Source: Schmidtea nova (lineage: Eukaryota). Taken from it: 64,000 nt of DNA. The position numbers and the translations under genes were made by a program. Positions within the stretch are counted from its first letter, which is position 1. Each line of letters starts with the position of its first letter. This document shows, in pieces, positions 23,284-49,544 of the stretch. The stretch lies in NCBI GenBank assembly GCA_044892505.1, contig CM097882.1:380432001-380496000 (forward strand), read 5' to 3'. The notes under the pieces were generated by a model. The model had not been told where the DNA came from, did not search any database, and saw nothing but the letters and a program-made list of their open reading frames with translations.

Positions 23284-24279
23284 CTAAGATATAGATATCA
23301 ATAAAAATTACATGAATGTTTAAATTTTTAATGATTTTATCAGTTAATATCAAAAATTCCATTTATTGTAGTAGAGGAATGCTAGCCAAATGAAGCCAAA
23401 CATCGCAGAGACCATCACGAATTTATTTGCATATCCGTCTAAATTTTTTTTTAAAATGACGTTATTTAAATATAAAAATTTCGTAATTTTATAATTTTTT
23501 TCAAAATTATCCATTATAATTGAATAATTTTTGCGTAAAAATACAAAAATTACAAGATTTTTAAATTTAATATATTTATATTAATATTAAAATATCTTTA
23601 TTACATAATATCATATGCTGGGTTCATGGAGGGGTTAGATGAAAAATGCTCTAACAATGACTAGGGATCCCTCATCCATGATCATGCATAAAATTGCAAT
23701 TTTACACTCAAGCGCCCTTGATTAGTCCCCTATATAATCAAGTTGGTGATGCGCAGGGTGGTTAAACAATGATGGGCAGGTGAGCACTATCGCTAGTACT
23801 ACTCCCCATTTATGTTTACGGGTCCATTGCTGCCGTTAGAAGGACTTATGCTTTAATTATTTGCTTAGGTATTCCGCAAACATCTTTTTAGAAAACTTTA
23901 TGTTTAACATTGCGTATTCTGCGAGAAGTGTTCAAATCGAAATGCTCGCCTAATTATTTGTTATCTTGTGATATGATTTTATACTTTTATACTCCATTTA
24001 TCTAATTATTTGTCAAGTTACAGAATCCATTTAAAAGAACAATAACAATTAAATTATCCCGAAAATTTTATTTAAGTTTTAATTAATTCCGTAAAAACTC
24101 CAGCCGGAGGAAAAATCTCCGTCAATAATTCTTCTTCGGTCATCCGATGTAGACCATCTATTTGACTCTGTAATCGCTGAGCGAATAATTTCCTCTGTCT
24201 TCGCCGTTTCTGCCCAATGCGCTTGCGTTTCTGGTGCGCATTTGCCGTTGAGGTGGTTGAATTTGCTGCAGGAGCCGTC

Positions 24280-24654
24280 TCATTCCGACTTTCGATTAGA
24301 TCGGCGACATCCGTACCAATGGAATTTACAGTCTTCTTTTCTGATGTCCAAGCTTGATACGTAACCGGACGGATTTGCTCTAATATATGAGGCAGTTACG
24401 GAATGGAGGCATTTTCGGAGTTCTATCTTCGTAGCCTCCCATTCCATTTGGTAATCGGCTGCAGTCTGCTGGGCGCGTTCGGTTTTACTGATTTGCTCTT
24501 TCATCCTGGCCGGAGCAAACCAGCTTTTGCGCAAGTATGCAATCTGTGCCTCGGCTTTGATCAATTGTGCCTTGAGGAGACCCAATTCCTTGTCCTGGGC
24601 TCTCCGGATCCGCCACATCTTTTCCAATTCTCTCTGTATCAAATCGGTGGTCAT
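24280..24654 (-). pseudogene. 3' LTR copy of LTR-ORF B, frameshifted
   Basis: Matches 48764-49360 up to ...TASYI, then shifts frame at the 14-nt deletion. Confidence 0.7.
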
Positions 24655-24838
24655 TCTATAATTTATTTAGGATATTTACTTTATGATTAAATTATGTGAA
24701 AAATGAAAATCTGATTATAGGGTTATTAGGTTACGAATACGAACTATTAAAAACACAAAACAAAACTCAAAACAACAAAATAAAAACACCACTGAACATT
24801 AATATTTGAACACAATTTAAACATTTGTCAATCAGTTT

Positions 24839-25318
24839 TTATCTCCGAAACAAGCTATGTAATTCGCTGTTAATCGGCCTCCGACGAAGACGAGTCCAAG
24901 AGAATGAGGGTTGTCCTTTCTGGCACTCCTTGCCGAACGGTTTTCGTGGTAGAAATTCGTGTAGGCCTAGTTGACACAGTTCCCGACGAGGGATGTGCCC
25001 CCAATAAATTATACGGCTTGTCCGTCCCTCGGTGTTTTTGACCAATACGATCAATCGGCCAAACTTATTCGAGTACGGCCTTTGGGAAATCGGCCAGTTC
25101 GGTCCTCCTCGATAGGGTATTTGGTCGTTCCCTCCTGTCCATATCGAGAACGGGCATTTTCGGCCAAACCCATGTCGCCACTTATACATCTGGCAGTTGA
25201 GGGTTCGCAACACCGGTGCCGGTAGATCCTTGAGCTGCGAGATCTTTCCATTCTGGGTATCCCCTTGTTCCACATTCCGTAGTTGAGTTAATTGATTCAT
25301 AAATTCGGCTGTCGACAT
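24839..25318 (-). CDS. 3' LTR copy of LTR-ORF A (159 aa, unknown)
   Basis: One amino acid differs from the 49545-50024 copy. Confidence 0.55.
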   Translation of the reverse strand: MSTAEFMNQLTQLRNVEQGDTQNGKISQLKDLPAPVLRTLNCQMYKWRHGFGRKCPFSIWTGGNDQIPYRGGPNWPISQRPYSNKFGRLIVLVKNTEGRTSRIIYWGHIPRRELCQLGLHEFLPRKPFGKECQKGQPSFSWTRLRRRPINSELHSLFRR

Positions 25319-26661
25319 CTATATTACATTCATTGGATATAAAATATATGAGTTAACGGAGGGAATTTGTTGATAAATCATTTATACTGCATATAATCAC
25401 AAAAGTTACTTAAAAATAAGATTAATTTTATTTCTCTCCGCCGTGATCTACCACGGTAGGAATAAAGAGTTCATAATTAGTTCTGTGCTATATACAGCAT
25501 TCAGGAATATAGAATTTAATACAGATTTCCGCGCTATATACAGCGATCGGACTATAACTTGGGAACCGCGCCATATACGACGATCGGCCTATTTTTAGTA
25601 ACTAATTTAATTTGGATTTTCCGACGCATTCCAACGCGATCGGAATTTATCGATATTAAAATTTTGTAGGCGAGATGCTGATTCCGAATGAAATCGGACT
25701 TTGGACTGCGTTGGATTTTCTCATTTCAGCGAAATTATTCAAATTTATTTTATTTGTTGCTCACTGTTTTTCCATGCGGGAGGTTCCATTTCGATTCAAT
25801 TGACTAAAAATTTAAATGATGAGCATGCCATACCATGGGGTGTCCCTCCTTATCAATCCGCCCCCCCCCCGCATTCTCCCTATTTGGCCCTCGACTCTCG
25901 TCCGTTGTGCAACCCAGAATTAAATAATTAGTAAATGGTCTGTACTAGATTAAAAATTCAATCAAATTTTCTAAATAAAATTCTACATCTAACTAAATAT
26001 TAAAAAGGTTGAACCGCCATGTGAGACCGTGAGGCCCCACAACGACGACTCGGACTCCCTCGCCGCGTGAGCAGCATAGGAAGTATAGCTATATGCATTA
26101 AAATGTCAATATCAAAAATAAAATAACGTTTACATATAAAATTTTTAATTGAACAAAAATCATGGGTACATCATATAAAACAAAATAAAGAAATTACTTC
26201 CGTACTTGAATGTGTGGTTCCTTGTATGAAATTCTGTTTTTTTCAAAAAATCTCGTTGGGTTCAATGAAATATTACTTAAATCAAAGTTTAGTCTTGATT
26301 GTAAGTTAAAAGTAAAACGTCTGTTGTTGTGATTTTTGGATCGGTATTTATACTGATCCGTCTGGTTGGATTGACCAATCAGGATCAGGCGTCCATCAAA
26401 GTATTTTTATTATTTTATTCTAATCTAAACATTATTTTGTTTCCTTTTCCGGTTTCTCGCTGGGTGGTCCTGATTTTCCAAGTAATTAATTAATTATTTG
26501 CACTATTATTTTATTTAATTCTATCTTTTCTTATTTCAGGCCCCCTTTTGCTGTTGTTTACCGGTTTATTTTCAAAATTTCCTTTTACTGAAAATTTATC
26601 AAATATTATTTGTCGTTTTATTGTTATTTTTAATTTGTTTTTCTTGTTATTTTTATGTTTA

Positions 26662-26862
26662 TTATTTTCTTATTGTTTTGTGTTTTTGCTCTTTTATTGT
26701 GTTTTTGGGTGATTTGGCGGGCCCAACTTGGGTTTGTCTTTCCAATTCCTCCTGTTTTCGGTAATAGGCATGAATCCATATCCCAATCCGCTCCATGTGA
26801 TTTCTGATCATTTCGTCTTGATGTACGGTTACTTCTTGTAAGGTTACTTCTATATTTCCCAT
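26662..26862 (-). CDS. 66-aa ORF crossing the internal/3' LTR boundary
   Basis: Element-sense strand; TAG-AA-ATG start context shared with other accessory ORFs. Confidence 0.4.
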   Translation of the reverse strand: MGNIEVTLQEVTVHQDEMIRNHMERIGIWIHAYYRKQEELERQTQVGPAKSPKNTIKEQKHKTIRK

Positions 26863-26992: not shown

Positions 26993-28348
26993 CTATCCGT
27001 TTTTCTCATGCCTCTCCATCTCTATGTATAGCGTGTCTGCATATAGTCGCTCCCATAGGTTTTCTTTCCTTATAAACATTGGTTCTCCTGCTGCTAGTCC
27101 GCATTCTGTTGTTGGTTTTTCGCTCGTACTCGTATGTTTGCCTGTTTCAAAGAACTTTTCCACTGGTTTTCCTATACTTTTGATTCTTATAATGACTCCT
27201 ACTTTCAAGGGCCATTCTATTAGGTCATCGTATTCTCCTTTACATAACGAGAAAAATATTGACACGTGTGTTCCTTGTCCTCTTCCGTCTCCATTTGGGT
27301 ATACTTTCAATCTTATTTTAACCCCGTTTTTCCATAAATAAAATGGTGGGCTTATTACTGCTGTTTTCGTCATATTTCTGGCTTCTGCTAGTTTGTCTCT
27401 GAAATCTGTCACTTTCCATAGGTAAGGTGCGATTGGTAAATCCCTTCTTTCGTCAATTTCTCGTATTAGTTGATTATATTGTATTTTCATTCCTTTTCCT
27501 AATTCTTCTATGGCTATTATTTTCTTTTCCATTCTTTCGCGAGTTAGTTCAAACTGCTCTCTTGTTTCTAGTAGTAAACTCATCATTATCTTATGTGATT
27601 CTACTTCTTTTTCTAATTTCTGGATTGTCTGTTTCGTTTCTTTTGTCGTTTCGTTTGTCATTTCCACATGCGTTAGTGCTGCTTCTTCTAGGTGTTGTTT
27701 CATTGATTGCCGCGTCCGCTTTTCTTTGCATCCCTGTTTGTTATATGGACATTCTCTTGGTCTTTCGGTACATACTTTCCAATGTTCATGTAACTTTACT
27801 TCTGTTATTTCGCAATTGTTTGGATATTTACTTACATATTGTCTGCATACTTTCTCCTCTGTTATATTCAAGTGTTCCTCTTCGATTTTTCTCCTCGTTT
27901 CTCGAGTTTCACAATACTCGCATGCGATTTCTTCTTCTTTACATTCTTCCTTGTGTTGTTCTCTCTTCTTTAGAGTTATTGTCTGTTGGCATTTCTCGCA
28001 TTCGGCTCTCTTTTCCTCGCATTTTTCCATATGGTTTTCCAGATTACTTATTTGTCCTTGCCATGTACAAGGTGTATTTACGCACTCCGTTGTGGTGCTC
28101 ATAATTTCTCTTTGGGTTGCTTTGTCCGTTCTGGTTTCGTCCAACACTATTCTTCCTTCCTTACATTCTGGGCATGTTGTTATTCCGGTTGCGTCTAATT
28201 CTTGTATACATTTTGTACATATTCTACATCCACATATCGTTTGTCTGGGTTCTCGTAATAAATTGTTACACTTCCCGCATGTGAGCCTCTTGCTCCATTT
28301 TCTGTTTTCTAGTCTCAAAATTTTGATTATTCGTTCTTCTCTGTCCAT
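26993..28348 (-). CDS. TRAF: TRAF-family protein: RING, TRAF zinc fingers, coiled coil, MATH domain; intronless
   Basis: CGKCNNLLREPRQTICGCRICTKC...CPEC; YLWKVTDF...SPPFY...KVYPNGDGRGQGTHVSIFF...GEYDDLIEWP. Confidence 0.93.
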   Translation of the reverse strand: MDREERIIKILRLENRKWSKRLTCGKCNNLLREPRQTICGCRICTKCIQELDATGITTCPECKEGRIVLDETRTDKATQREIMSTTTECVNTPCTWQGQISNLENHMEKCEEKRAECEKCQQTITLKKREQHKEECKEEEIACEYCETRETRRKIEEEHLNITEEKVCRQYVSKYPNNCEITEVKLHEHWKVCTERPRECPYNKQGCKEKRTRQSMKQHLEEAALTHVEMTNETTKETKQTIQKLEKEVESHKIMMSLLLETREQFELTRERMEKKIIAIEELGKGMKIQYNQLIREIDERRDLPIAPYLWKVTDFRDKLAEARNMTKTAVISPPFYLWKNGVKIRLKVYPNGDGRGQGTHVSIFFSLCKGEYDDLIEWPLKVGVIIRIKSIGKPVEKFFETGKHTSTSEKPTTECGLAAGEPMFIRKENLWERLYADTLYIEMERHEKNG

Positions 28349-28440
28349 TTTCTACAATAATATATACATTCGACCTGTCATTTATTTTTGGTTTTTCTTG
28401 TTTTTATTTTTACATATTTACAATTTTCCGCTTTATTTAT

Positions 28441-28797
28441 CTATGGCTCATTCGTTGAATCTGGTTCCGCTTCGTTGTTTAGTCTATTTATTACCCAACT
28501 CATCCATCCTTCTTCGGATTCTTCTCTTTCTCCTCGTGTTAAATGGTTTATTTCTATTGCTTGTCTTTGATTGATATTGCTTATATTTTGATTTTCTCTG
28601 GTGAGCTCGGTTATCACTCTTTGTTGTTCTTCTATTCTGTGTAATTGTTCGAAACAGTTGTTATAACTTTCTGATAATAACATTTGTCTTTCCGCTAATT
28701 GGTTCTGTAATGAGTTGACTGTTCGTACTAATAAATCACATTGTGCTTTCCATCTCATAGCCATAGTTATTTCAGTTGTTTCGTCCTGTTCGGTCAT
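28441..28797 (-). CDS. 118-aa coiled-coil-like accessory protein, unknown
   Basis: Intact ORF between two element ORFs; heptad-like LQNQLAERQ...ITELTRENQ. Confidence 0.65.
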   Translation of the reverse strand: MTEQDETTEITMAMRWKAQCDLLVRTVNSLQNQLAERQMLLSESYNNCFEQLHRIEEQQRVITELTRENQNISNINQRQAIEINHLTRGEREESEEGWMSWVINRLNNEAEPDSTNEP

Positions 28798-28922: not shown

Positions 28923-31900
28923 CTATACCATCATTATCGTCTTTTCCTCGTATCGTTCTTCATCTTCTATTTGTTTCCAGAATTCTTTACCTTTCGTTCT
29001 TCTTTGAAATTCTTTCTGTATCTCTTCTGGTATTTCTATTCTTTGCTTCATAATTTTAATATCTGGCCATTGTATGGCTGTCGCTTTGTTTCTCTTTCTG
29101 TATCTCCAATATATTATCATGCTTGTCGTCATTATCCCATATGCTATTAATATTCCTATACTGATTAATCCTATTACTGTTTTTCCACGGTTTGTTGCTT
29201 TGATTTTATTCTGATTCACTTTTATCTCATTTTGCGTTTGAGCCTCTGGCCTCTTCTCCTTCTGCACTTGACTCTTGACTTGGTTCATTACTTCTTGTGT
29301 AGACCAATGGCGGTTTATTAGTTGTTTGACGTTATTTTCTTTTGTTCGGTTTTCCATGTTTCCTGGTTCGATCTGTTGTTGTAGTTTCTCTGAGATCTGA
29401 TATAATCCGCATTCTGGTTTTTCTGAACCTTTTCTGGTGAAGGTACATATCGCGTATGTCCTATTTACTTCCATTTTCTTTAATTCGACTTTTTCTTTAT
29501 TCTTTATTTCTTTACGGTGGGTTAGGTTGTCTTCTTCCCCTTCTGGGTTATGCTTTGTCCAACATATTCCTTTAACTGTTTGATCGAGTCCTGTTATTGT
29601 CAGAGTTCTTTCTGTCTTTGTTAATTTTTCTTCATCGAATTTCAGTATCTCTCCTTTTTGGAATGTCTTGCAATGCTCTATTCCCTCTTGGATTCCTCTC
29701 TCCCAGATACATATACTTCCTTCTTCATTCATTTGTATTTCTTGTATTTCGATTTCCTTGTTTGTTTGTGATTCGTCGCTTGTCTGAACTTGGTATTCCT
29801 TCCTTGGTTCGTTGTATGTTCCCCAGCATAGTTTGTTGCTGCTTGTTTTTCTTATTGTTATGGCCATTTGTTCTATTATTATTCCTTTGTCAATACGTTT
29901 GGACATTGCTATTATTAACGCTATGCATATGACATCTTGTTGGGGTGATGCTCCTTCTCTCGTGTTATTTATGCTTCTCTCCCCTTCTCCTGGTTTATCC
30001 GTTGTGTTTCTTATCTGAGTTGCTGGTTGATCTATTGTGTTTTTGATTTCTTTCTTTGTTGGTTTTACTCTATACCATTCAAGTCTAGGCGTTTCATATT
30101 TTTGACATACGACTGTCTTAGGTAGCCCCGACTTCTTTTCCTTTTCTATTATGCATATCCGATGCATGATTCCTCTATCCATCCCTTCTATTCGTACTAT
30201 ATCCTGGTCGGATTTTCTGATTATGCATTTTAGTGGGTTATCTTTCCCAATTGGTTCATCCTCTCTATTCCAGCATATTTTCTCGACCTCCTGGACATTT
30301 ACTATTTTTATCCCTGCTTGTAGGTTTGTTGCTTCTTCCCTATTGATTAATGTCAATATTATTGTTAGACCCAACCATTTTGAACTCTGCGGTAGGCTTC
30401 TGGTTCGCCTTTCATATTTTTTCTCTTCTCCTTTAATCTCTTTTATTTCCTTGTCTTTGTTGTTCATTCCTAGTTTTGCGATTTTTGCTTCTTTCTTACT
30501 CCTGGTCGGTTTTGGTTCTTCTCGTACTTCTAGTATTTCGACTCCATGGCTTGTATTATCTATATTTAGCCATTGGGTTGTTGATTTTCTTGGGCTTATC
30601 TTGCGTATCCATATAGTTGATAATGCGATTATTACCGGTATGGTCGCTGTTAATATTCCTAAACCAATTAGTTCTTTAATTTCTTTATTCTCGTCTGTTT
30701 GTATAGATTCGCTTTGGTTGAACATTATTCCGTATTGTCCCTTTAGTTTTCTCATTAATTGTTCTCGTTCCTCTTGCTTTCTTTCGACTTCTTTGATAAC
30801 TTCTTCAGGTGTCCATTTTGCCTGAGGGTCGGTTATTATTTTCTCTGCGTCCATTTGTTCGTTCGTTTGGCTTAGTTCCTTGAATTCAAGTTTCCTTGTT
30901 ATTCCTTTTGATGTTGCGTTTGCTGGTGTATAGTAGGTTTCGCATCTTTCTTGTTGGTTTCCCAGTGCGTCCATTTTTTCTATTGCACATACTTCATACT
31001 CGCTATTAAATTGTAGTTTTTCGATCTTGATTTCTTTATTTGTTTTTCTGCACTCTCTTGATTGTCTTCTTATATGTTTCTGGACTATTATCCAACATAT
31101 TTCTGATGTTTTATTCTCTATTTTCCATAATGTCAGAGTTGCTGATGTCTTTTTCTCGGGTTTTGTCGTAACTTCTTGGCTTATCGGTTGTTTATTGTTT
31201 TTAAAGGTAGTGGTGTACTTCGGTTTTCCTTTGTTTCGTTGTCTTCTTTTATTTTTTCGTGTTAACGTCTTAGTTCTTGTTCCGGTTGAAGTTGTATATA
31301 TTCCGCATTCTAGGTCGTTTATCGTTATCTGATCATTTTTCTTTACCAAACATATTTCGTAGGTTTGTTTACCTTCTAAACCTTTTATTTGAATCGTCGT
31401 TGTTCCTGTGTTTGTTTGACATTGTGGTGTCGTTCTTTTATTTACTTCTTTTTCGTACTTCCTCCAGCATACTCCTTTCACATTTGGTTCTATCTCTTTT
31501 ATTTCTAATGTTATGTTTACTTTCTGCTTGATTTGTTTATTTCTCTTCCTCGTTCTCCTCCTGAACTTTATTACTTCTCCAGGTTGGAATGTTTTACATT
31601 TTGTGGTACCTTTCTTGTTTGTCTCTTTTTCTAGTAGGCATAGTTTGTATGTCTTATCTGCTTTTACTTCGGATACTTTAATTACTTTATTCGTTGTTGG
31701 TTTTCGACTTTTCCTTATTTCATTTACGCCGATTTCCTCGTCATTCCTCGCCCAACATTTTATGTTAGTGTTCTGTGTATCTTCCACTTCTGTTATTGTC
31801 ATAGTTTCAATTTCTATTCCTTCCTCTAATCGTTTTATTATTATTAGTATGAGTGCTAAGCATAATACTTCCATTTGGTAAGACACTCTTTCGGTTTCGT

Positions 31901-32015
31901 TTGTGGCAACTCTTGCTTCGGGCCTCTTTATTGTAATTCGTATAGTTGGTGTTGTTTGCTTATCTATTGCCTGGGGTTTTTGTTTTCTGTTCCCTGTGTC
32001 TCTGTTCTTCCACAT
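28923..32015 (-). CDS. 1030-aa membrane protein with six FN3-like repeats and several hydrophobic segments
   Basis: Repeated about 90-aa unit (I.I...[IV]CW...I.I..L....Y.[IV]C...C..[YF].T); TM-like LIGLGILTATIPVIIAL and VIGLISIGILIAYGIM; continues a unit that starts at the end of pol. Confidence 0.75.
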   Translation of the reverse strand: MWKNRDTGNRKQKPQAIDKQTTPTIRITIKRPEARVATNETERVSYQMEVLCLALILIIIKRLEEGIEIETMTITEVEDTQNTNIKCWARNDEEIGVNEIRKSRKPTTNKVIKVSEVKADKTYKLCLLEKETNKKGTTKCKTFQPGEVIKFRRRTRKRNKQIKQKVNITLEIKEIEPNVKGVCWRKYEKEVNKRTTPQCQTNTGTTTIQIKGLEGKQTYEICLVKKNDQITINDLECGIYTTSTGTRTKTLTRKNKRRQRNKGKPKYTTTFKNNKQPISQEVTTKPEKKTSATLTLWKIENKTSEICWIIVQKHIRRQSRECRKTNKEIKIEKLQFNSEYEVCAIEKMDALGNQQERCETYYTPANATSKGITRKLEFKELSQTNEQMDAEKIITDPQAKWTPEEVIKEVERKQEEREQLMRKLKGQYGIMFNQSESIQTDENKEIKELIGLGILTATIPVIIALSTIWIRKISPRKSTTQWLNIDNTSHGVEILEVREEPKPTRSKKEAKIAKLGMNNKDKEIKEIKGEEKKYERRTRSLPQSSKWLGLTIILTLINREEATNLQAGIKIVNVQEVEKICWNREDEPIGKDNPLKCIIRKSDQDIVRIEGMDRGIMHRICIIEKEKKSGLPKTVVCQKYETPRLEWYRVKPTKKEIKNTIDQPATQIRNTTDKPGEGERSINNTREGASPQQDVICIALIIAMSKRIDKGIIIEQMAITIRKTSSNKLCWGTYNEPRKEYQVQTSDESQTNKEIEIQEIQMNEEGSICIWERGIQEGIEHCKTFQKGEILKFDEEKLTKTERTLTITGLDQTVKGICWTKHNPEGEEDNLTHRKEIKNKEKVELKKMEVNRTYAICTFTRKGSEKPECGLYQISEKLQQQIEPGNMENRTKENNVKQLINRHWSTQEVMNQVKSQVQKEKRPEAQTQNEIKVNQNKIKATNRGKTVIGLISIGILIAYGIMTTSMIIYWRYRKRNKATAIQWPDIKIMKQRIEIPEEIQKEFQRRTKGKEFWKQIEDEERYEEKTIMMV

Positions 32016-35000
32016 TTTCCGAGGATGTAATCTCCTTTGGGTGACTGTTGTATTGTCATGGCTGCTTTAGGTGTTTGGTATTTTGCACATGCGATTGTGT
32101 TGTGTGATCTTGGATGCTTTTGTTTTCTAACGGTGCATATTTTGTACCAGGTATTTAGATCTAGGTCGTTGATCTCTATGATTTCTTGCTCGTGTTCTGA
32201 GATTCTGCAATCCATCGGACTATTTTGTTCCGTGATTTTGTCCTTTTTTGACCAACATACTCGTTCGATTCCTTTTGCGTTTTTTATTTGTATTATTGCC
32301 CTTTCTTCACATGTCATTCCTTGACTTGGGTTAATTAACGTTAAAATCACTGTAAATAATAGTAATTCTGGTTTGAAGAATGGTTTTATGGTTGATTTAT
32401 AACCTGTTCTTTGGGTGTCATTTTTATCTCCTTGGTCGTTTTTTCCTTGTTCTCCATCTTCATCTTTTTGTTTTTCGTCTTCATTTTTCTTTTCTTCCTT
32501 GTCTCGTTTCTTGTCTTTTCCCTCGTGTTCCTCTTTATCTGGTGGCTCGTGATCGTTTGACTTTTCTGAGTTGTTACCGTCGTCACTATCTGTATTGTCA
32601 TCTCCCCCTGGCTCGTCGAAAATGTCGTCCTCGACATTGATTTCTTCTATTAATTTTGCATATGCTAATGTCGTTAGATTACTTGCCTCAAATTCTTGTG
32701 TTTCTACCTGCTCCGGTATTACTTTGTTAGTGGATTTATATTCCCAGATTTCCTTTTTGGCCTTGATCCAATTGTTGATATATGTCTTCATCAATTCTTT
32801 CCATTTGCCTGTGTATTTTTCTTCTTTCGGGCTGGTTGTGATTCTTAGATCCTTTCTTTCCATAAACATTTTCAATATTTCTGGCCATTTATACGTTATT
32901 AAGGCACTTCTTATACACCAGTTTTGGTTATGTTCTGTAAACTTGTTAATCCTGAATGCTGGTTCGTTAGTATTCGGATTTATCCACGTAAGTATTGCTT
33001 CTGTTAGTTCGACGTTATGCATCATTGTTAGTACACTGGGTTTCCTGACCGTATCAGTTAGGTAATCTATTTCTTCCTGATTTGAGATTGTTTTAATGAA
33101 GTTGACCATTTCCCAATTATGTGTTAGTAATGCTACATCCAAAATTGAATTATCTTTATCTGTCTTTCCAGTAAGTCCTGCACCTGCTTTATATAGTTCT
33201 TCTAATACCTTTGTTTTCGTTTTAGCTCTTGCTGCAAATACCATAAGTGTATCTCCTTTCTCGTCTATCATATTCATGTTGCTTCCGCAATTTAACATTA
33301 CTCTTGCAATTTCCATTACTTTTCTATCTTTGCCACTTCGTAGAGCTCTATGTATGGGCATTATTCCGTCCTTTGGTAGTAAAAATGTTACTGGCATCTC
33401 CTTTTTTATAGTCGTTATGTCGTTACCATTGTATGTTCCTTTTGCGTATGCGTGTACTTTTTCAACTAATGCGCCGAGTATTTCCAGTGCATGTTTACTA
33501 TTCTCGAATTCCGGTAACAATTCTTTTGCTTTTTCTTGTATCGCATCTAGTCTAGCTTGGTATGGTGCTTCTGCTTTGAAGAGTGGTGTGAGTTTCTTGT
33601 TACTTTCTCTTTCTTTTTTCTCTAAAACCTGTTTGCATTTTTCAGGATGGTTTAAGATTTTTACTAATTCCTCATATTCGCTTACTATCGTCTGGTATTT
33701 CTCGTTAAAATTGTTTATGTCTTTGTATGTTATTAGTTTATCAAGTGGTTTCGCGCACCATTTCCTAATCTTGTTGAATAAGGCATTCTTTTCTTTATCG
33801 AATTGATGTTCTTCTTCATTCTTTGTGATGTTTATGTTTCCTCTGTCTAATAAGGTTAGTAATGTCTTCTGATCACAAGTAAATTTCAAAAGGTATCTTA
33901 ACAGTGCGTTTTGTCCTTCGCTGTATACTTCGTTTATGTCTAAGACCCATGTATCATCTTCTGGTCGTTTCCATTTGATTAACTTACGGATCGTGTTGCA
34001 TTTACCAATTTTGATTGCCTCTTTGATAATGTCTCCTTTAACTAGTTCGTCTATCTCCCAAGTGGAGTTAGCTATTATGTATTTCAGCATTGGTTGGTGA
34101 GAACTCCATATTACGTGATTTAGCACTGTTTTGTCTTCTCTATCTCGTTCTGTCCAACTGAAATGAGCTTTTATCAATAGATCTATCATTTCTTTATCTG
34201 CTTGGTGGATTGCGGCTGTCATTAATGGAGTTTCTTGTTCCCGATTCCCTACGTCCAAGTTTTGGTTTGTTTCTTTTGCGATTTTTAGGAATTCTTTTGC
34301 TCTTTCAATGTTTTTACACTCTATCGCATTGTGTAAGGCTGGTTGTCCTCCTACATCTTTCAATAAGAGTATTTCTGGGATTTTTATCAATAATTCAGAA
34401 ATAATTGGTTCGGTTGGTAATCCTTGTGCGTAACGGCTAATTATATGTCTAATGTCCCTTGATATGCCTACTTCGTCTTTAACATGCCATCTTCCCATTA
34501 TCTCTCTCGCCTTCAATATGATTTCTTTATTTCTGATTTCCTTTTGCCTTATTTCCGCTTTGTCGTCTTCAGTTGCATTAGCTCTGAGCATATTTATCCT
34601 GGCTGTTTGTGATCTGGTTATTATTCGATTTTCTGGTGTTGTAGTTATCGTTTTAGGCACCTTCTTACATCTGCAGGTGTTTACATATATGGGTCGTATT
34701 AACGGTCGATTTATTAGCTTAACTTTGACATTATTGTCCTTTTTGTATATAATTTCGTAAGGTCCTCTTCCAGGTCTTTGGAGTTTCTTAACAGTTCCTG
34801 GTATTATTTCGGGAGTTTCTATTATCACCCAATCTCCTGGTTTTAGGTTGTTCGCTTTAACATTTTTCTTCTGGTCGTGTAAATCCTTATAACTTTCTTG
34901 ATAAAATTTAATGTTGAGTTCTGCCGTTTTCCATATTTCCTGCATCCTTTCTTTGAATTTGGTTACGTAGTCGTCGTCTTCCATATATTGCGATAATGGT

Positions 35001-38000
35001 GGTTGATACTCTAAATCTATGGGCATGTTGCATTCTCTTCCATACATGAGTTGAAATGGGCTTAGTTTTGTTGCTGCATGTATCGACATTCGGTATGCCA
35101 TTAAACATAATTTTATGTATTCGTCCCAATCAGTTTGATGTCTGCTGACGTAATTTGATAACATTCTGATCAATGTACCATTGAATCGCTCCGTTTGTCC
35201 ATTCGTTTGCGGGTGATATGGTGAAGTTCTCAATTTTGCTATTCTGAAATAGTTTGTCACCTCGTTCAATAACTCACTCATAAAATTAGTTCCTTGGTCT
35301 GTGAGTATTTGTTTTGGAGTTCCGTATCTGCAACATATTTCTTCCACTAGAATTTTTGCTACGGTTTTTGCTTTTTGGTCTTGTATGGCAAATGCTTCCG
35401 GGAATTTCGTCAGATAATCCGTTATTACCAATATATAAATATTTCCGTTTAAACTTTCTGGTAATGGTCCTATTAAGTCCATTGCTATAGTTGTCATTGG
35501 CTCTGCTGGTATCGGCATTGGTTGTAGCGGGTTCTTCCATTTCTTCCCACTATCCTTTCTGGTTGCGCAAGTTAGACAATTTTTAATCCATTCCTTTATA
35601 TCTTCTTCCATTGTTCGCCAATAATATTTTTGTCTCATACGATTTATTGTCTTTTTCTCGGACATATGACCTCCTAATTTCCCATCATGGTATTGGATCA
35701 TTATCTCTTTCCTTCTGTTTTCCGGTAAGCACATCAATCTCTTTTCCCCGTCTTGTATTAACAACCATCCTTTATTTATTATGTAGCGATGTTGATATTT
35801 TCCTATATGTTCCTTTAATTCCTTATTATCCTTGAATACCTCCATATTTCGAGACGTTAGGAACTCTATGATCTGTCCCAATTCTTTGTCTTCCTGTTGA
35901 TCTTTCTTTAACTCACTAAAATCTAAATCCTCCGCTATTAATACACAAATTCGTTGTACATCAGGATCGGTTAGTTCTGGAAATGTCAGTCTTGACATAC
36001 AGTCTGCATTCGCATTCGCTCTTCCTGATTTAAATTTTATGTCTGGTGAGTACTCCTGTAACTGCATTGCCCATCGCATTAATCTACTGGATGTTTCCTT
36101 GTGCTGTCCTAACCATACAAGCGGTTGGTGATCTGTTGTTATGCAGATGATGTGTCCCCATAATAAATTTTTAAAGTGTTTAATAGCTAATATAATCGCT
36201 AGTGCTTCCCGTTCTGTCACTGAGTAATTTTTCTCATGCTTTTTGAATGTTCGACTATAATATCCGATTACCCGTTCTTTTCCTTCGTCGTCGTATTGTC
36301 CTAATACGGCTCCTGCTGCATATCCGCTTGCATCTGTTGCAAGTAGGAATGGCTTCTTGAAGTCTGGGTGTACCAATATGGGTGCGGTTATCAGTTTATC
36401 TCTCAATGTTTCAAAGGCTGTTTGCTGTTCGTCTCCCCATATGAATGATACGTCTTTCTTTACTAGCTCCTGTATAGGCTTTGCGATTCCGGCGTAATCT
36501 TTTATAAACTTTCTATAATATCCACATAGTCCGAGAAATTCTTGTATTTGGGTTATTGTTTTTGGTACTGGGCATTCTTTTACCTTGTCGATATTTCTAG
36601 GATCCGGTTCTTTTCCTTTTGCTGACACTATATGTCCTAAAAATGTAACCTTTTCTTTTGCCCAATCGCATTTTGATGGCTTGAGTTTTAACTTCCATTG
36701 TCTAAGCCTAACGAATACATCTCGAATATCCTGTATGTGTTGTTCGAATGTACTAGAGTAAATCAATAAGTCGTCGATGTAGACCATGCACTGCTTTATT
36801 CCGTGGGTGACGAAATTCATGCATCTCTGGAATGATGCTGGTGCGTTTGTTAGTCCAAATGGCATCTTTCGAAATTGATATAGGTCTCTACCGATGGTAA
36901 AGGCAGTTTTCTCTTTATCTTCTTCTTTCATTTTTATTTGCCAATATCCGCTTTTCAGATCTAACGACGTAAAATATGCTGCTCCTTGTAGTGTTAGTAG
37001 CATTTCGTTGATGTCTGGTAATGGGTAAGTATCTCGTTTGGTCACTGTATTCAACCTTCGATAGTCGATGCAGAATCTCTGTGTTCCGTCTTTCTTCTTT
37101 ACCATTACCACTGGGAATTGCCAGGGTGAACAACTGGGTTCAATTACTTCTGCATCTAACATTTTCTTCACTTCTGCTTCCGCTACTGCTTTCTGTGCTT
37201 CCGCTAATTTGTACGGCCTTAATGCAATTGGTGTTTCATCTGTTAATGGTATTGTATGTAGTGTGACATCACATGTTCCTAGATCCAAATCGGATGCTGC
37301 AAATATGTCCTTATACTCCATCAGCAGTTTTTCTAACTGTTTCTTTTGGTCCTCATTTAATAATTCACTATCAATATTCCAGGTTGGTTCTTTATCTTTC
37401 TCTGCCCCTTCTATTGGCAGTTCGATATCCATCATTGGGGTTAGTTTGCCTAATCTTTCGTTTTCGTAGATTATTTTGTCCTCTTCGTCGAAGTTTACTA
37501 TGTTTATTGGGATTTCTCCATTGTCATTTATGTTGACTAGTCCTCTTGCCATTGGCAACGCTTTTCTTTTCTCGAATCTTTTACTTGGTTCGAAAATCAT
37601 ATCGCCTTGGATTGTCGGATCTATTTTTACGTAACATATTTTCTCCTTTCTTGCGGGTATTATCATTTGCTTTGAACTTGTCACTTTAGCTTCTATTGCG
37701 CATATTTGTCCTGTGCGATCCTTTAGTCTCATTGTTCCGAGATCTATTACAATCTCTTTAAATAATGCTGGCATCAAATCTGTTCCGATAATGCAAGGTA
37801 CGCTTAATGCTGGTATAACTGCTACGTACGTATCGATTTCCGTGTTTAAGTGGCGTATTTTTACCCACCATCTTCCTGCTACTTCTACAACTTCTTTGCT
37901 ACATGCAATTACATGGACGTTTGTCCTTTCTATTTCCCGTCTTTGCTCTTGTGGTATCCATTTGATGTCGATGGCGGAAATGTTTGCTCCAGTGTCGATC

Positions 38001-41000
38001 ATTGCTTCGATTTCTCTTCCGTTAATCTCTATTGTCGTGGTTAATACTGGACCTGTGTTTGATGACATCACTGCGATCGTGTGTGTATCTCCTTGTGGAT
38101 CCACACTTCTACATCTTCTCATTTTATAATCTTCTGGTATCATGGGGTATACATTTGTCATTGGCATCATTTGCATCGTGCTATTTTTTCCTCCTTGTAG
38201 TGGTTCTTGATACATTGTTGGTGGGGGTGCGTAACATTTCCATGCGTCGGCTGGATTTTTTTCGATGTATTGTGGTGCTTGGTTCTTATACACTTGTCCT
38301 CCCTTATAGTCGTCATCGTCATCGTCGTCGTCACTCGAATCATTTTGGGTTTTATATCCTTTCATCCTCTCCCATAAACCTTTTCTTTCTCTCTTGAGCT
38401 GTTGTCTTGCTTGTTCGTCATTCATTATCTTTTTAAATTTTCGTCCCACTTCTTCATCTGTTCCCTTCATTTTTGCTAATATCTTTAGGAGTCTTTTTAT
38501 TCGGTGGATATCTTTTGAGTGACCGTGTAACACCATTGTTTTCGCAAGGAATGGTAAAAACCCTACTACCATTTTCCAATTCACTTTCTTTTCTCTCTTG
38601 TAAATATCGAAACACGCTAACATTTGCGTTATTATCACTCTGACGATTTGTATTATTAATATAACCCCCAGTATTCCAGCCATCATTTGTCCGAATATCA
38701 GGAATCTTCCCCACATTGCTTTCATCATATTTTCTGTGGCTTTCTTGAAATGTGCTGGTGACAACAACAGTTCATAATTCGGTCCTTCTCGATAATCCGT
38801 TCCTCCCGTTATCGTTACGATATTTGACAGTAATGCTTCTCTTCTTGCCGGGAATAATATATTCTGCCTTGCTGCTTCTAAATCCTTTGGACTATATATT
38901 CCGTTGTTTGAGACATCTACGTCGCTGAATTGCCTATCCTTTGACAACTGCATTAGCTCGAATTCTCTTGGTGCTATCACTTCGGATCTTCCTGGGAACA
39001 TAACCCATTTACCATCTGGTTTTTGATAAAGCGGTCCGTACGCATTACTACAGTTGAATGGATTTGGTTCAAACCCTGGTGGGTTGATGATTCTCGTCAC
39101 CGGTTGAACGTATCGTACTTTTCCTTTGTAATCGATTTCTAACTCATTTGTACAGGTTCCAGGTTTCAACTGTGTTGTTGCTGCTAGCGACGCGTGTGTC
39201 TTTTCGCAAATGTATACGTACATTGCTTCTCCAACCACTCTTCCGAAATGTCCTTCTCTCAGTGGTAATAATGGCATCGCGCTATCTGGATTCGTAATCG
39301 CTACGGCCAACTTTGTCTTTAATATTTCTCGATTCAGTATACAATCATTATTTATCAGATCGTAATACACTTTTTGTAATGAGGCTTGTCCTCTATGGAA
39401 TAGGAAATCCATTTTATTATTCACATATAGGTGTAGTTTGATATCTATTGTGTCGATTTTGGGTTTCGCATTTGGCACTTCTTGTTTTGACACATATATT
39501 CCTGGGTAATTCGTTTCGTATACCGTTGTACTACACTTAAGGGTTGCTTTCCCTTTTATGAACCTCATTCCCACATCCTGATTTGTGGTTATCAACACTG
39601 TTGGTGTGGCTCTCATCTCTATTCGTTTTTCTCTATGATCTGGTTTCAGTTGTCTTTTATTCTCTAAAGCTTCCTTGAGATGCTTTGCTCTAGCTTTGTC
39701 GTCCTCGTCTTCTTCCTGGAACGTTTTTCCTTGAATTTCGTCGAACTGTGCTCCTTGTAGTAGTTGTAATTGACATTCGTTCACCTTTGGTTTGTATACT
39801 AATGTTGACATTCCCGTTTGACACATGCTCCTGTCGATTTTACACATGGATAACGTTTTCATTTCTCCCGTTGTTGGTTCGAAGAATGCTTCATAGCTTT
39901 TCAATTCGACTATGTACGTATCCATCACTACTAAGTTGGTTGCGGGTACTCCGAATATCGGGTAGGTTTCTCCTTGACAATATCCTTCTCCTCCCGTAAT
40001 CCGTCCTGCTACATAGTAGGTTTGTTGCAGCATCATCCCTGGCTTTCCTCTTATCTTGATTTTATCCCTTGTTGTTACTTCTCCGTGTTTAAACAGTGCT
40101 TCGCAGTCCTCTCCTTGTAACACGATTGGTTCTCTTTCCGTTCCTGGCATGACAATTGCTGAATAATGTCCTCTCCCGCAGTAGAATGCGAATCTCGTTT
40201 TCTGCACCTTACATTCATTCACCATTGTCTTTATGAGTTCTGCTTCTTGATACACGTGGTACCATTGTTCTTTTTTAATCTTTTGCAACTCTACTGGAGT
40301 TGCATCTTTGCATTGCTCCGTACCCCTCAATGAATACTTTTCTCCTAACTTCATTTGGTCGCAATCAAACACTTCGAATGCCGTTGCGCTATCGGTGCTA
40401 ATCATCCATATCAACATCATCATTATTATAGAACTCAGATTCATTGATGACTTTGCGTTTCCTGTTCCTGTTTGTTCCTTTTCTAACTCTTCCAATATTT
40501 TTTCGAATTTCTTTTTCATATTCTTGGCTTGCGTTTTCTTCTGGTTAGTTTTTATAAATGTTTCCCATCCTCCTTTGTTAATGACGTAGGGTTCTATTTC
40601 TCTAGCTATAATCTTTGCGGTATTTTTTATATGTCTTTCTAATGCGGTGGGTTTTGGTCTACCTCTACTCAGTGTCAACAGATTGTAGATCGTGTATGCA
40701 ATGGCTATTACATATTTGTTATCAGTTTCCGCTCCTTCTGTCAATTTCTTTATTAACGTAGTGGTTCCTTGCCAGTCTAAATGATTTGACTTCGTCTTTT
40801 CTTTTATGAATTCTGGTAGGATGGGTGCAATTGCGCTGTGTAATGACTTCGCCTTTTCGCTTATCTCAGTTATACGCCAGTATTTTCTCAATTCCGGATC
40901 AATTATTGCCAATATTTCCATTATTGTTTTCGATATCCATTCCTCCCCTTGACATATTGGTGTTGTTTCTTTTTCTTTTATCTCCGCGATCTTAATTAAT

Positions 41001-41428
41001 TTCTTTAAACATAATTCCCATTGATCTTGTCTCTTTTCATCCTTATTTCTGATGACTACATTCGCTGGATCTGTCTTGGGTCTACCTCGAGGTCGCCTAT
41101 CCATTCCTGTACCTGTTTCCACAAACCTTGTTGCCCGTCCTGTTTCTTCCGTGACATCTCTTGGTTCGTTAGCTCTTTCTTCTAACCATCTTTCCATTTC
41201 CTGTGTTAATTGTGCATTTTCGACATTCGCTCCTCTCGTTTCGTCTTCTGTTAGATCGTTTACTTCTTCTATTATTATTTCTTCTTCGACTTCTGCTTCT
41301 CCGGTGTTGGTTACTTGTATTGTCGTAGGTAATTCTTGTATCCTTTCGAAAATATTATCGTCTTTTTCCTTTGTTAATTCGGTTAATTCTTCTATCATAT
41401 CGTCACTGTCTGTCAATATTTCGTCCAC
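31964..41428 (-). CDS. pol: 3154-aa polyprotein: Bcl-2-like, signal peptide, envelope glycoprotein, TM, PR, RT, RNase H, IN, ankyrin repeats, acidic linker, FN3-like unit
   Basis: MIDTGA (about 37990), YIDD (about 36775), ATDASG (about 36330), HH-CC plus MDLIGP/TDQG/TERFN, GRGPY (about 34760); uninterrupted frame. Confidence 0.95.
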   Translation of the reverse strand: MDEILTDSDDMIEELTELTKEKDDNIFERIQELPTTIQVTNTGEAEVEEEIIIEEVNDLTEDETRGANVENAQLTQEMERWLEERANEPRDVTEETGRATRFVETGTGMDRRPRGRPKTDPANVVIRNKDEKRQDQWELCLKKLIKIAEIKEKETTPICQGEEWISKTIMEILAIIDPELRKYWRITEISEKAKSLHSAIAPILPEFIKEKTKSNHLDWQGTTTLIKKLTEGAETDNKYVIAIAYTIYNLLTLSRGRPKPTALERHIKNTAKIIAREIEPYVINKGGWETFIKTNQKKTQAKNMKKKFEKILEELEKEQTGTGNAKSSMNLSSIIMMMLIWMISTDSATAFEVFDCDQMKLGEKYSLRGTEQCKDATPVELQKIKKEQWYHVYQEAELIKTMVNECKVQKTRFAFYCGRGHYSAIVMPGTEREPIVLQGEDCEALFKHGEVTTRDKIKIRGKPGMMLQQTYYVAGRITGGEGYCQGETYPIFGVPATNLVVMDTYIVELKSYEAFFEPTTGEMKTLSMCKIDRSMCQTGMSTLVYKPKVNECQLQLLQGAQFDEIQGKTFQEEDEDDKARAKHLKEALENKRQLKPDHREKRIEMRATPTVLITTNQDVGMRFIKGKATLKCSTTVYETNYPGIYVSKQEVPNAKPKIDTIDIKLHLYVNNKMDFLFHRGQASLQKVYYDLINNDCILNREILKTKLAVAITNPDSAMPLLPLREGHFGRVVGEAMYVYICEKTHASLAATTQLKPGTCTNELEIDYKGKVRYVQPVTRIINPPGFEPNPFNCSNAYGPLYQKPDGKWVMFPGRSEVIAPREFELMQLSKDRQFSDVDVSNNGIYSPKDLEAARQNILFPARREALLSNIVTITGGTDYREGPNYELLLSPAHFKKATENMMKAMWGRFLIFGQMMAGILGVILIIQIVRVIITQMLACFDIYKREKKVNWKMVVGFLPFLAKTMVLHGHSKDIHRIKRLLKILAKMKGTDEEVGRKFKKIMNDEQARQQLKRERKGLWERMKGYKTQNDSSDDDDDDDDYKGGQVYKNQAPQYIEKNPADAWKCYAPPPTMYQEPLQGGKNSTMQMMPMTNVYPMIPEDYKMRRCRSVDPQGDTHTIAVMSSNTGPVLTTTIEINGREIEAMIDTGANISAIDIKWIPQEQRREIERTNVHVIACSKEVVEVAGRWWVKIRHLNTEIDTYVAVIPALSVPCIIGTDLMPALFKEIVIDLGTMRLKDRTGQICAIEAKVTSSKQMIIPARKEKICYVKIDPTIQGDMIFEPSKRFEKRKALPMARGLVNINDNGEIPINIVNFDEEDKIIYENERLGKLTPMMDIELPIEGAEKDKEPTWNIDSELLNEDQKKQLEKLLMEYKDIFAASDLDLGTCDVTLHTIPLTDETPIALRPYKLAEAQKAVAEAEVKKMLDAEVIEPSCSPWQFPVVMVKKKDGTQRFCIDYRRLNTVTKRDTYPLPDINEMLLTLQGAAYFTSLDLKSGYWQIKMKEEDKEKTAFTIGRDLYQFRKMPFGLTNAPASFQRCMNFVTHGIKQCMVYIDDLLIYSSTFEQHIQDIRDVFVRLRQWKLKLKPSKCDWAKEKVTFLGHIVSAKGKEPDPRNIDKVKECPVPKTITQIQEFLGLCGYYRKFIKDYAGIAKPIQELVKKDVSFIWGDEQQTAFETLRDKLITAPILVHPDFKKPFLLATDASGYAAGAVLGQYDDEGKERVIGYYSRTFKKHEKNYSVTEREALAIILAIKHFKNLLWGHIICITTDHQPLVWLGQHKETSSRLMRWAMQLQEYSPDIKFKSGRANANADCMSRLTFPELTDPDVQRICVLIAEDLDFSELKKDQQEDKELGQIIEFLTSRNMEVFKDNKELKEHIGKYQHRYIINKGWLLIQDGEKRLMCLPENRRKEIMIQYHDGKLGGHMSEKKTINRMRQKYYWRTMEEDIKEWIKNCLTCATRKDSGKKWKNPLQPMPIPAEPMTTIAMDLIGPLPESLNGNIYILVITDYLTKFPEAFAIQDQKAKTVAKILVEEICCRYGTPKQILTDQGTNFMSELLNEVTNYFRIAKLRTSPYHPQTNGQTERFNGTLIRMLSNYVSRHQTDWDEYIKLCLMAYRMSIHAATKLSPFQLMYGRECNMPIDLEYQPPLSQYMEDDDYVTKFKERMQEIWKTAELNIKFYQESYKDLHDQKKNVKANNLKPGDWVIIETPEIIPGTVKKLQRPGRGPYEIIYKKDNNVKVKLINRPLIRPIYVNTCRCKKVPKTITTTPENRIITRSQTARINMLRANATEDDKAEIRQKEIRNKEIILKAREIMGRWHVKDEVGISRDIRHIISRYAQGLPTEPIISELLIKIPEILLLKDVGGQPALHNAIECKNIERAKEFLKIAKETNQNLDVGNREQETPLMTAAIHQADKEMIDLLIKAHFSWTERDREDKTVLNHVIWSSHQPMLKYIIANSTWEIDELVKGDIIKEAIKIGKCNTIRKLIKWKRPEDDTWVLDINEVYSEGQNALLRYLLKFTCDQKTLLTLLDRGNINITKNEEEHQFDKEKNALFNKIRKWCAKPLDKLITYKDINNFNEKYQTIVSEYEELVKILNHPEKCKQVLEKKERESNKKLTPLFKAEAPYQARLDAIQEKAKELLPEFENSKHALEILGALVEKVHAYAKGTYNGNDITTIKKEMPVTFLLPKDGIMPIHRALRSGKDRKVMEIARVMLNCGSNMNMIDEKGDTLMVFAARAKTKTKVLEELYKAGAGLTGKTDKDNSILDVALLTHNWEMVNFIKTISNQEEIDYLTDTVRKPSVLTMMHNVELTEAILTWINPNTNEPAFRINKFTEHNQNWCIRSALITYKWPEILKMFMERKDLRITTSPKEEKYTGKWKELMKTYINNWIKAKKEIWEYKSTNKVIPEQVETQEFEASNLTTLAYAKLIEEINVEDDIFDEPGGDDNTDSDDGNNSEKSNDHEPPDKEEHEGKDKKRDKEEKKNEDEKQKDEDGEQGKNDQGDKNDTQRTGYKSTIKPFFKPELLLFTVILTLINPSQGMTCEERAIIQIKNAKGIERVCWSKKDKITEQNSPMDCRISEHEQEIIEINDLDLNTWYKICTVRKQKHPRSHNTIACAKYQTPKAAMTIQQSPKGDYILGKCGRTETQGTENKNPRQ
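33110..34370 (-). other. Two ankyrin-repeat clusters C-terminal to integrase (domain of pol)
   Basis: GQPALHNAI, QETPLMTAA, DKTVLNHVI; GIMPIHRAL, GDTLMVFAA, DNSILDVAL at ankyrin-like spacing. Confidence 0.85.
38620..40445 (-). other. env: Chuvirus-like (class III, gB-related) envelope glycoprotein (domain of pol)
   Basis: Signal SSIIMMMLIWMISTDSATA; FDC; ECKVQKTRFAFYCGRGH; CTNELEI..KG..YVQPVTRII; NGIYSPKDL..ARQNILFP.RR; TM WGRFLIFGQMMAGILGVILII. Confidence 0.82.
40550..40950 (-). other. Bcl-2-like domain (domain of pol)
   Basis: BH2-like YVINKGGWETFI; BH1-position LDWQGTTTLI; helical character. Confidence 0.6.
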
Positions 41429-46821: not shown

Positions 46822-46861
46822 TAACGCCTAGCTAGGTCATTCAATAAGGCTCGTTGGCCTC

Positions 46862-47037
46862 AACCCTTTTTTTCAAGGGACAAACCGCTAATAACCCTTT
46901 GTTTCAAGGGACAAATCTCCTAACCCTTTGTTTCAAGGGACAAATCTCCTAACCCTTTGTTTCAAGGGACAAATCTCCTAACCCTTTGTTTCAAGGGACA
47001 AATCTCATAACCCTTTGTTTCAAGGGACAAATCTCCT
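46862..47037. repeat. Tandem array, 6 x 29 bp
   Basis: AACCCTTTGTTTCAAGGGACAAATCTCCT units start at 46862, 46893, 46922, 46951, 46980, 47009. Confidence 0.95.
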
Positions 47038-47516: not shown

Positions 47517-47978
47517 TTATAAATATACAATAATTTTATCATCAATCATCAGGTTGCACATAGGACATAGGTCGCGCTTGCTGGCACATATTTTACAAAA
47601 ACGAAAATGTCCGCAAGGTAAAAACATAATTTGTATCTCCCTATCCTCACATATATAGCACTGTCGGTATTTTTTCGCTGCTTCTACCCCTTGCGCCCTC
47701 CATCGATTGTATGTTGAGGTTAATCGTTGTTCTATTTGCCTGCACTTAAGGTTTAATTCTGCATTTTCTAATCGTGCTCTGTACCATTTGTAGCGGGTCT
47801 CTATGTCGATTTTTCTTGTTCTTTCCGTTATCTTTATTAATTCATCCGTTTCCTCGGTCTGTGTTGTGGGTTCCTGAAATTCAATCTCTCTAAATCGGTT
47901 TATCTTCTTGCCAATCGTTCCTAATGTTTCGCTTTCTGTGTTGAGGAATTCTTCGATTTCTTTCAGTTTTTCCTCCAT
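47517..47978 (-). CDS. 153-aa protein with a C-terminal IAP-type RING finger, no BIR
   Basis: CYICEDREIQIMFLPCGHFRFCKICASKRDLCPMC...IIVYL-stop. Confidence 0.85.
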   Translation of the reverse strand: MEEKLKEIEEFLNTESETLGTIGKKINRFREIEFQEPTTQTEETDELIKITERTRKIDIETRYKWYRARLENAELNLKCRQIEQRLTSTYNRWRAQGVEAAKKYRQCYICEDREIQIMFLPCGHFRFCKICASKRDLCPMCNLMIDDKIIVYL

Positions 47979-48283: not shown

Positions 48284-48301
48284 ATCCCGACTGAGCCCCC
48301 A
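48284..48301 (-). promoter_or_regulatory. Primer binding site, tRNA-Pro-like
   Basis: Minus-strand TGGGGGCTCAGTCGGGAT, 6 nt after the LTR CA; 15/18 match to the MLV-type Pro PBS TGGGGGCTCGTCCGGGAT. Confidence 0.8.
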
Positions 48302-48763
48302 AATTTATGCTGGGTTCATGGAGGGGTTAGATGAAAAATGCTCTAACAATGACTAGGGATCCCTCATCCATGATCATGCATAAAATTGCAATTTTACACT
48401 CAAGCGCCCTTGATTAGTCCCCTATATAATCAAGTTGGTGATGCGCAGGGTGGTTAAACAATGATGGGCAGGTGAGCACTATCGCTAGTACTACTCCCCA
48501 TTTATGTTTACGGGTCCATTGCTGCCGTTAGAAGGACTTATGCTTTAATTATTTGCTTAGGTATTCCGCAAACATCTTTTTAGAAAACTTTATGTTTAAC
48601 ATTGCGTATTCTGCGAGAAGTGTTCAAATCGAAATGCTCGCCTAATTATTTGTTATCTTGTGATATGATTTTATACTTTTATACTCCATTTATCTAATTA
48701 TTTGTCAAGTTACAGAATCCATTTAAAAGAACAATAACAATTAAATTATCCCGAAAATTTTAT

Positions 48764-49360: not shown

Positions 49361-49544
49361 TCTATAATTTATTTAGGATATTTACTTTATGATTAAATTA
49401 TGTGAAAAATGAAAATCTGATTATAGGGTTATTAGGTTACGAATACGAACTATTAAAAACACAAAACAAAACTCAAAACAACAAAATAAAAACACCACTG
49501 AACATTAATATTTGAACACAATTTAAACATTTGTCAATCAGTTT

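Follow-up and report, generated by a model that had tools for sequence, protein, structure and literature searches.

The closest described relatives of the locus reported here are the Burro elements of planarians. According to the consulted portion of PMC6431247, Burro/GYPSM1 combines a polyprotein of ~5,000 aa with an in-frame mononegavirus-like env and with MATH_TRAF_C, BIR, ankyrin and BCL2-like motifs, a Burro-like element of Dugesia tigrina bears MATH_TRAF_C in an upstream accessory ORF, and the presence of a TRAF/MATH domain in Burro elements is cited as known since 2007. For one such cargo gene, the Burro1 B-IAP, a role in keeping stem cells from apoptosis is reported (Lee et al., Dev Cell 2026, as described in part of PMC13465017), and BURRO1 RNA rises on PIWI loss (PMC8532177, a source whose available part does not mention TRAF). 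Virus-encoded TRAFs are represented by ORF111L of the megalocytivirus ISKNV, a large DNA virus of fish, which the available text of PMC3352826 presents as a 296-aa protein that is pro-apoptotic through TRADD, has a RING, a coiled coil and MATH, and originated in the host lineage. The TRAFs described below resemble it in this origin and these domains, but are carried by an inherited LTR retroelement, are 451-470 aa long and have a full zinc-finger array.

We analysed a 64-kb stretch of Schmidtea nova DNA (the window), where a first-pass annotation had placed an intronless TRAF gene inside a retroelement. The retroelement was confirmed: the TRAF ORF (26993..28348) lies between 3.1-kb direct repeats that are 99.3% identical, a 5' LTR (48308..51433) and a 3' LTR (23616..26727, its first base removed by a deletion), with TG..CA ends and a target-site duplication, TATG, at 23612..23615 and 51434-51437. 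Since the two LTRs differ by only four substitutions and three small indels, the insertion is young. The element spans 27.8 kb in the window, including a ~1.78-kb deletion, and all its genes, like the LTRs and the features listed below for it, are on the minus strand. After the 5' LTR, a stretch at 48284..48301 resembles a primer-binding site, with a putative likeness to the 3' end of tRNA-Pro. Each LTR also holds two ORFs without a Pfam match (49545-50024 and 48764-49360, repeated at 24839-25318 and 24280-24654).

A 153-aa ORF with a C-terminal IAP/MDM2-type RING (47517..47978; zf-C3HC4_3, E 5e-12) is separated from gag by a leader, in which 46533-47068 consists of tandem arrays of 32-nt and 29-nt units. 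The polyprotein is split in the window copy by two breaks into a gag part of 1313 aa with CCHC knuckles (41453..45394), a 3144-aa part with env, protease, RT, RNase H, integrase and ankyrins (31964..41398), and a C-terminal part of 1030 aa (28923..32015). Within the 3144-aa frame, the mononegavirus-type env (Monjiviricetes_fusion, PF24664, E 1.5e-70) lies in frame upstream of the protease, and Pfam placed protease at residues 1121-1211, RT at 1433-1591, RNase H at 1654-1783 and integrase at 1892-2063. Six other copies were read upstream; the polyprotein was a single frame of 5,494 aa in one of them, spanning gag to the 1030-aa part, a single frame of at least 4,807 aa in another, and broken in four. 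Thus, the three-ORF appearance in the window reflects damage. A 118-aa accessory ORF (28441..28797), kept in all three families of the element described below, lies directly upstream of the TRAF ORF, and the deletion junction (26727..26728) follows the latter. At this point the sequence of all 29 other copies first compared diverges from the window copy, and a match to the LTR begins near base 1,700-2,200 in 14 downstream stretches of other copies, behind ORFs of 353 aa and ~189 aa in those stretches that were translated. The idea that other copies have different LTRs was rejected, as the LTR is shared and it is the window copy that has a deletion; what other copies hold in this region is the remainder of the 353-aa ORF, which encodes a coiled coil, then the ~189-aa ORF for a membrane protein and a G-rich tract before the LTR. 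As a separate observation, diverged LTR types can accompany the same TRAF: in one locus (L035), identity in the two LTR ORFs is 38% and 58%.

Paired TG..CA LTRs, the target-site duplication and the order protease-RT-RNase H-integrase are traits of Ty3/Gypsy elements (Metaviridae). With Burro1/GYPSM1 and Burro-2 to -4 of Schmidtea mediterranea and with the D. tigrina element, the window element shares a size near 30 kb, a huge gag-first polyprotein, env before the protease-RT-RNase H-integrase block, ankyrins, MATH_TRAF and accessory ORFs with ubiquitin/apoptosis domains. In Burro1, however, MATH_TRAF_C lies inside the polyprotein, whereas the window element has a whole RING-zinc finger-coiled coil-MATH TRAF as a separate ORF 3' of the polyprotein; moreover, Burro elements carry BIR, whereas the IAP-type RING stands alone here, no element ORF scanned giving a BIR match. 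A helical region before env ends in a GGW motif, which we take to resemble BH2, and a search of this region for a BCL2-like domain by Pfam, PDB sequence search, Atlas and a low-confidence fold was negative. No dUTPase-like domain was found in the element. With no BIR found and the BCL2-like domain not confirmed, we file the element, by published descriptions of layout, as Burro-like and not as Burro1.

The C-terminal polyprotein part (28923-32015) shows FN3-like features in its internal repeats (Atlas 0.88, a lead only), contains hydrophobic, transmembrane-like segments, and is possibly a captured surface-receptor module. In one locus (L032, G000:C1:144341500-144351499), an internal deletion has joined gag and the FN3-like part into one reading frame of 1,911 aa; env and pol are absent and the TRAF is open, so that this copy is possibly a non-autonomous derivative. 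Elsewhere in the window, on the plus strand, we observed an ORF with filamin repeats (9569-10279; Pfam E 1.2e-18) between older Gypsy remnants, other Gypsy fragments with zinc knuckle, RT, RNase H and integrase (1545-5239, 12367-14540 and 17811-19851) and DUF4371 fragments below the Pfam cut-off (16412-17047 and 53798-54502), likely DNA-transposon remnants. A 343-bp inverted repeat, 92% complementary (20191-21133), is likely a small DNA transposon.

The TRAF ORF reads 451 aa without a stop on the minus strand, the plus strand of 26993-28348 being stop-rich, and the domain order proposed for it at first reading was recovered in full. It comprises a RING (residues 24-62; 28163..28279), a zinc-finger region (residues 89-227; 27668..28084), a coiled coil or TRAF-N (predicted helix 224-302; 27443..27679) and a MATH or TRAF-C domain (residues 309-444; 27017..27424). 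Pfam recognized MATH_2 over residues 309-444 (E 1.8e-20) and the zinc fingers (zf-TRAF, E 7.4e-6; Sina_ZnF, E 5.9e-6) and made no RING call at E<=0.01; residues 1-113 matched the RING+ZF1 structures of human TRAF2, TRAF5 and TRAF6 (E 4e-11 to 2e-8, best with TRAF2). The AlphaFold2 model, built on a 27-row alignment, had a mean pLDDT of 88.5 and a pTM of 0.41, with residues 224-302 as a single helix, and its top Foldseek match was TRAF3 (E 1.6e-16), with TRAF5 and TRAF2 also matched. RING, TRAF-type zinc fingers and a coiled coil with a MATH beta-sandwich, i.e. the features of the TRAF family, are therefore found together in the window protein. Its coding strand is 45.6% A, against 41-49% in the other ORFs of the element, in agreement with the A-rich composition noted initially. 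The window copy is itself damaged: its tail is shortened (451 aa, against 458 aa as the family norm), and zinc ligand 175, invariant in the 51 other copies compared, is missing.

Exact short-pattern counts, with controls at 0, gave at least 358 loci with this TRAF, 249 of families A1 and A2 together and 109 of a family B. A protein search of the S. nova genome returned at least 94 matches of family A (95-100% identity), 88 of them without an internal stop, and at least 90 of sister family B (470 aa, 51% identity to the window TRAF), 84 of them without a stop. The third family, A2 (460 aa, ~77% identity to the window TRAF), emerged from a position-picked sample, i.e. the first 40 matches to the A pattern in genome order, whose frames were read directly; 32 of these 40 copies were open over at least 445 aa, with the tail shifted in one. 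In all six of the other element copies read upstream the TRAF occupied the same slot, and for families B and A2, two copies each read upstream had the gene order of the window element. In a further comparison of the families, env (38594-39778, residues 541-935 of the 3144-aa frame) was 98% identical between the window copy and a family B copy (L142), with pS 0.25, against 88% for RT-integrase (pS 0.84) and 52% for the TRAF; this difference suggests that env was recently exchanged between sister families A and B.

Pairwise Nei-Gojobori dN/dS was 0.112 within family A (39 copies) and 0.096 within family B (44 copies). Protein searches favour copies with low dN, and the measurement was therefore repeated on the position-picked sample, where open copies gave 0.122 for A1 (18 copies) and 0.162 for A2 (13 copies), and all 40 copies, broken ones included, gave 0.156. 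Between A1 and A2 the ratio was 0.128 (95% codon bootstrap 0.090-0.179) at a dS of 0.96; between A and B dS is saturated (pS 0.74-0.77) and the ratio was not used. By domain, A1 versus A2 gave 0.24 for the RING, 0.12 for the zinc fingers and 0.13 for MATH, the coil being saturated in dS, and RING and zinc fingers ranged from 0.05 to 0.24 across comparisons. Over 51 copies, 27 of the 28 Cys/His positions checked were invariant and the remaining one varied once. Variants found in a single copy had a higher dN/dS than shared variants (0.39 versus 0.19), as would follow from selection on the lineage that replicates. RT-integrase was much more constrained (0.014-0.020), and two neighbours of the TRAF had ratios close to its own, 0.16 for the 118-aa ORF and 0.12 for the 353-aa ORF. 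The TRAF ratios indicate that it is kept under purifying selection in every domain and that the protein matters to the element; selection as such had been proposed, and is now seen in ratios of 0.10-0.16 among copies of a gene with at least 358 loci; dN/dS shows neither activity nor direction.

The relation to host TRAFs was assessed against at least eight distinct host-like TRAF loci found by protein search of the same genome, with which the element TRAF shares only 26-29% identity; it is thus neither near-identical to a host TRAF nor present in this copy alone. For S. mediterranea, the consulted part of PMC6109357 gives 99 MATH transcripts. At fourfold sites the element TRAF has A 0.68 and T 0.04, alongside A 0.49-0.62 in other ORFs of the element and A 0.29-0.42 and T 0.15-0.41 in host-like TRAFs. 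Two trees were built, a quick one of 56 rows and a careful mixture-model one of 30 rows that omitted the partial rows P0025, P0038, L057 and L083 and most of the distant rows. In the 30-row tree, element and planarian TRAFs, including TRAF-2 (T1DF65) and TRAF-4 (T1DBK6) of Dendrocoelum lacteum, formed one group at 100/100, a grouping that may be inflated by long branches and odd composition. The element clade was there one of three deep branches, each of the other two holding one D. lacteum protein, and support for the host-like rows alone as a group was 51/12. Two traits follow the same division: at RING ligand 4 the window TRAF has Cys in place of His, as do 16 of 18 planarian and element rows, whereas 9 of 9 others have His; and the coiled-coil linker measures 67-100 aa in planarian and element TRAFs versus 157-182 aa in other TRAFs. 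Planarian host TRAFs (T1DF65, T1DBK6, L051, L054, L056, L065 and L082) thus resemble the element TRAF in single-exon coding, Cys at ligand 4, a short linker and membership of one clade, but differ from it in host-type codon use and in being clustered at few loci rather than dispersed inside LTRs.

Grouping with planarian TRAFs at 100/100 while being only 26-29% identical to them, the element TRAF likely came from a planarian host at an early date, and the old capture proposed in the first-pass annotation thus gains support from the tree, from the identity values and from the element-type fourfold sites. Its intronless state stood as an observation, in that the gene is a single frame, but lost its meaning: four host-like TRAFs also read as single frames from RING to MATH, so the absence of introns says nothing on retro-capture. 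Such single-exon coding regions would be easily picked up, which is the point in favour of a mere passenger, a host gene recently transduced and without function for the element. Against this reading stand the dN/dS of 0.13 at a dS near 1, the low host identity, the element-type codon bias and the same slot in three families; fourfold sites and dN/dS refute it unless a near-identical host donor was missed, and we attach next to no probability to it.

Among the ten top library matches looked up, the only named proteins were D. lacteum TRAF-2 and TRAF-4. Four matches (P0007, P0008, P0010 and P0012) were rejected as close relatives, being multi-MATH repeat proteins. Library proteins P0009, P0025 and P0038 group with the element TRAFs and are, judging by this placement, likely element-borne TRAFs of another planarian; P0032 (JGI/IMG contig, 452 aa), a TRAF on a long branch that falls with the element clade at 86/86, may derive from a further planarian element or virus. 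Element-borne TRAFs, with three library proteins joining the element clade, can inflate planarian TRAF gene counts.

An AT-rich motif ending in TTGTAG (28352..28367), putatively splice-acceptor-like, lies 3 nt before the TRAF ATG. In the window copy, YAG stands 0-3 nt before the ATG at 6 of 6 accessory ORF starts versus 46 of 365 internal ATGs, by a rule chosen after the data were seen; under the same rule, family B had it at four of seven accessory starts, and at six of seven within 8 nt. All 39 A copies and all 44 B copies examined have TTGTAG ahead of the TRAF start, and 31 of the 32 position-picked copies have YAG there; the TAG before the TRAF ATG doubles as an in-frame stop in family A1. 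Four runs of assembled contigs, which look like genomic DNA and so are neutral on splicing, had no joint at this AG. Planarians use trans-splicing, and the TRAF would be expressed from a processed sub-genomic RNA, cis-spliced or trans-spliced with a spliced leader, through the AG before its ATG. The host-like TRAFs L051, L054, L056 and L065 have a T-rich stretch ending in AG shortly before their ATG, and from this likeness a single TRAF coding exon may have been captured together with its acceptor.

Residues 245-448 were predicted to form a homotrimer (score 0.76, best of three controls 0.01), a score to which memory of solved TRAF trimers may contribute; runs agreed in at least 93% of contacts with pLDDT of at least 83. 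Among solved self-pairs, 21 of 30 reached the mark for a trimer, and among single chains 0 of 23 did; the corresponding figures were 17 of 29 and 0 of 30 for eukaryotes, and 7 of 16 self-pairs for animals. At the receptor groove, the TRAF2 hot spots R393/Y395 correspond to K/Y, F410/F447/F456/C469 to F/F/S/E and S453-455 to T-S-T in the window TRAF (roles of the triad, F456 and C469 according to the available part of PMC6125299). The full receptor-binding signature of TRAF1, TRAF2, TRAF3 and TRAF5 is hence absent, with Y395, F410 and F447 kept and the equivalents of the triad, F456, S467 and C469 changed; host planarian TRAFs also deviate at receptor-groove residues, and the serine-triad equivalent is H-E-A in family B.

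For the role of the TRAF, the first-pass annotation suggested a decoy or modulator. A dominant-negative decoy, which would join host TRAF trimers or occupy receptor tails and block signalling with no ligase output of its own, is compatible with the trimer surface predicted to be intact, with the altered equivalents of the serine triad, F456, S467 and C469 relative to TRAF2/3 and with a RING that shows a higher dN/dS between A1 and A2 than do the zinc fingers and MATH (0.24 versus 0.12-0.13). However, the similar groove changes in host planarian TRAFs and the retention of the RING and all zinc fingers at dN/dS of 0.05-0.24 speak against a decoy, as does the usual lack of the RING in classic TRAF dominant negatives, and we consider it unlikely. 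Since RING, zinc fingers and MATH are all under selection, a working adaptor or ligase is likelier than a truncated decoy.

The groove residues, which differ between families A and B, would suit family-specific partners, i.e. a TRAF that ubiquitinates or scaffolds gag, env and the membrane ORFs for assembly, budding or trafficking and takes no part in host immune signalling. The element also encodes env, an FN3-like membrane segment and a membrane ORF, and the order of these and the TRAF is fixed in three families. Published Burro cargo, on the other hand, leans to apoptosis and ubiquitin regulators (PMC6431247, as far as consulted), and such a housekeeping role seems to us rather improbable.

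The reading that we favour, and hold to be slightly better than an even bet, is that this full-length TRAF, likely an old planarian capture and now a Burro-type accessory gene, is likely a working trimeric adaptor and ubiquitin ligase that tunes stress, immune and cell-death signalling for cell survival. It would form a trimer, as predicted, would act on host TRAF pathways such as TAK1-p38/JNK and would favour survival of the cells that express the element. The pro-survival direction is drawn from analogy with the Burro1 B-IAP and from the element's own IAP-type RING ORF; as the latter has no BIR, a mammalian-type TRAF2-cIAP contact would not be available. Both B-IAP and the TRAF are host-derived regulators of ubiquitin or cell death on a planarian giant LTR element, but B-IAP is a BIR+RING protein for which the consulted text reports a demonstrated anti-apoptotic role, whereas the window gene is a TRAF with a putative role. 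The only tested viral TRAF that we found points the opposite way: in the available text of PMC3352826, ISKNV ORF111L promotes apoptosis, binding TRADD and inducing caspase-8 apoptosis. By analogy, the element TRAF, encoded together with a fusogen, would set off cell death through caspases, so that particles are released or spread. A death gene inherited in hundreds of open copies would be costly, however, and the related Burro1 cargo is anti-apoptotic (PMC13465017, second-hand), so that we regard this effector role as very unlikely.

Compared with the literature found, the full-length TRAF as a separate 3' ORF, the selection on it and the acceptor-like AG before accessory ORFs are new; no description of such an ORF with selection data was found in the literature searched, although Lee et al. 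2026, Grohme et al. 2018 and the Burro supplements may cover it. On a broader and more speculative view, to which we give a low probability, Burro-like elements would be complex endogenous viruses with captured regulators on spliced or trans-spliced sub-genomic RNAs, and their TRAF, open in ~300 copies and acquired ahead of the split between the main planarian TRAF clades, would be dose-dominant in TRAF signalling, shaping stem-cell survival and immunity and forming part of the reported planarian 'TRAF expansion'. Together with B-IAP, the element TRAF makes two host-derived cargo genes of planarian giant retroelements that are open to testing, and data on selection back the choice of the TRAF. 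The gene is relevant to the question of whether such elements act as parasites, blocking host defence, or as partners in stem-cell support, which RNAi in planarians makes directly testable.
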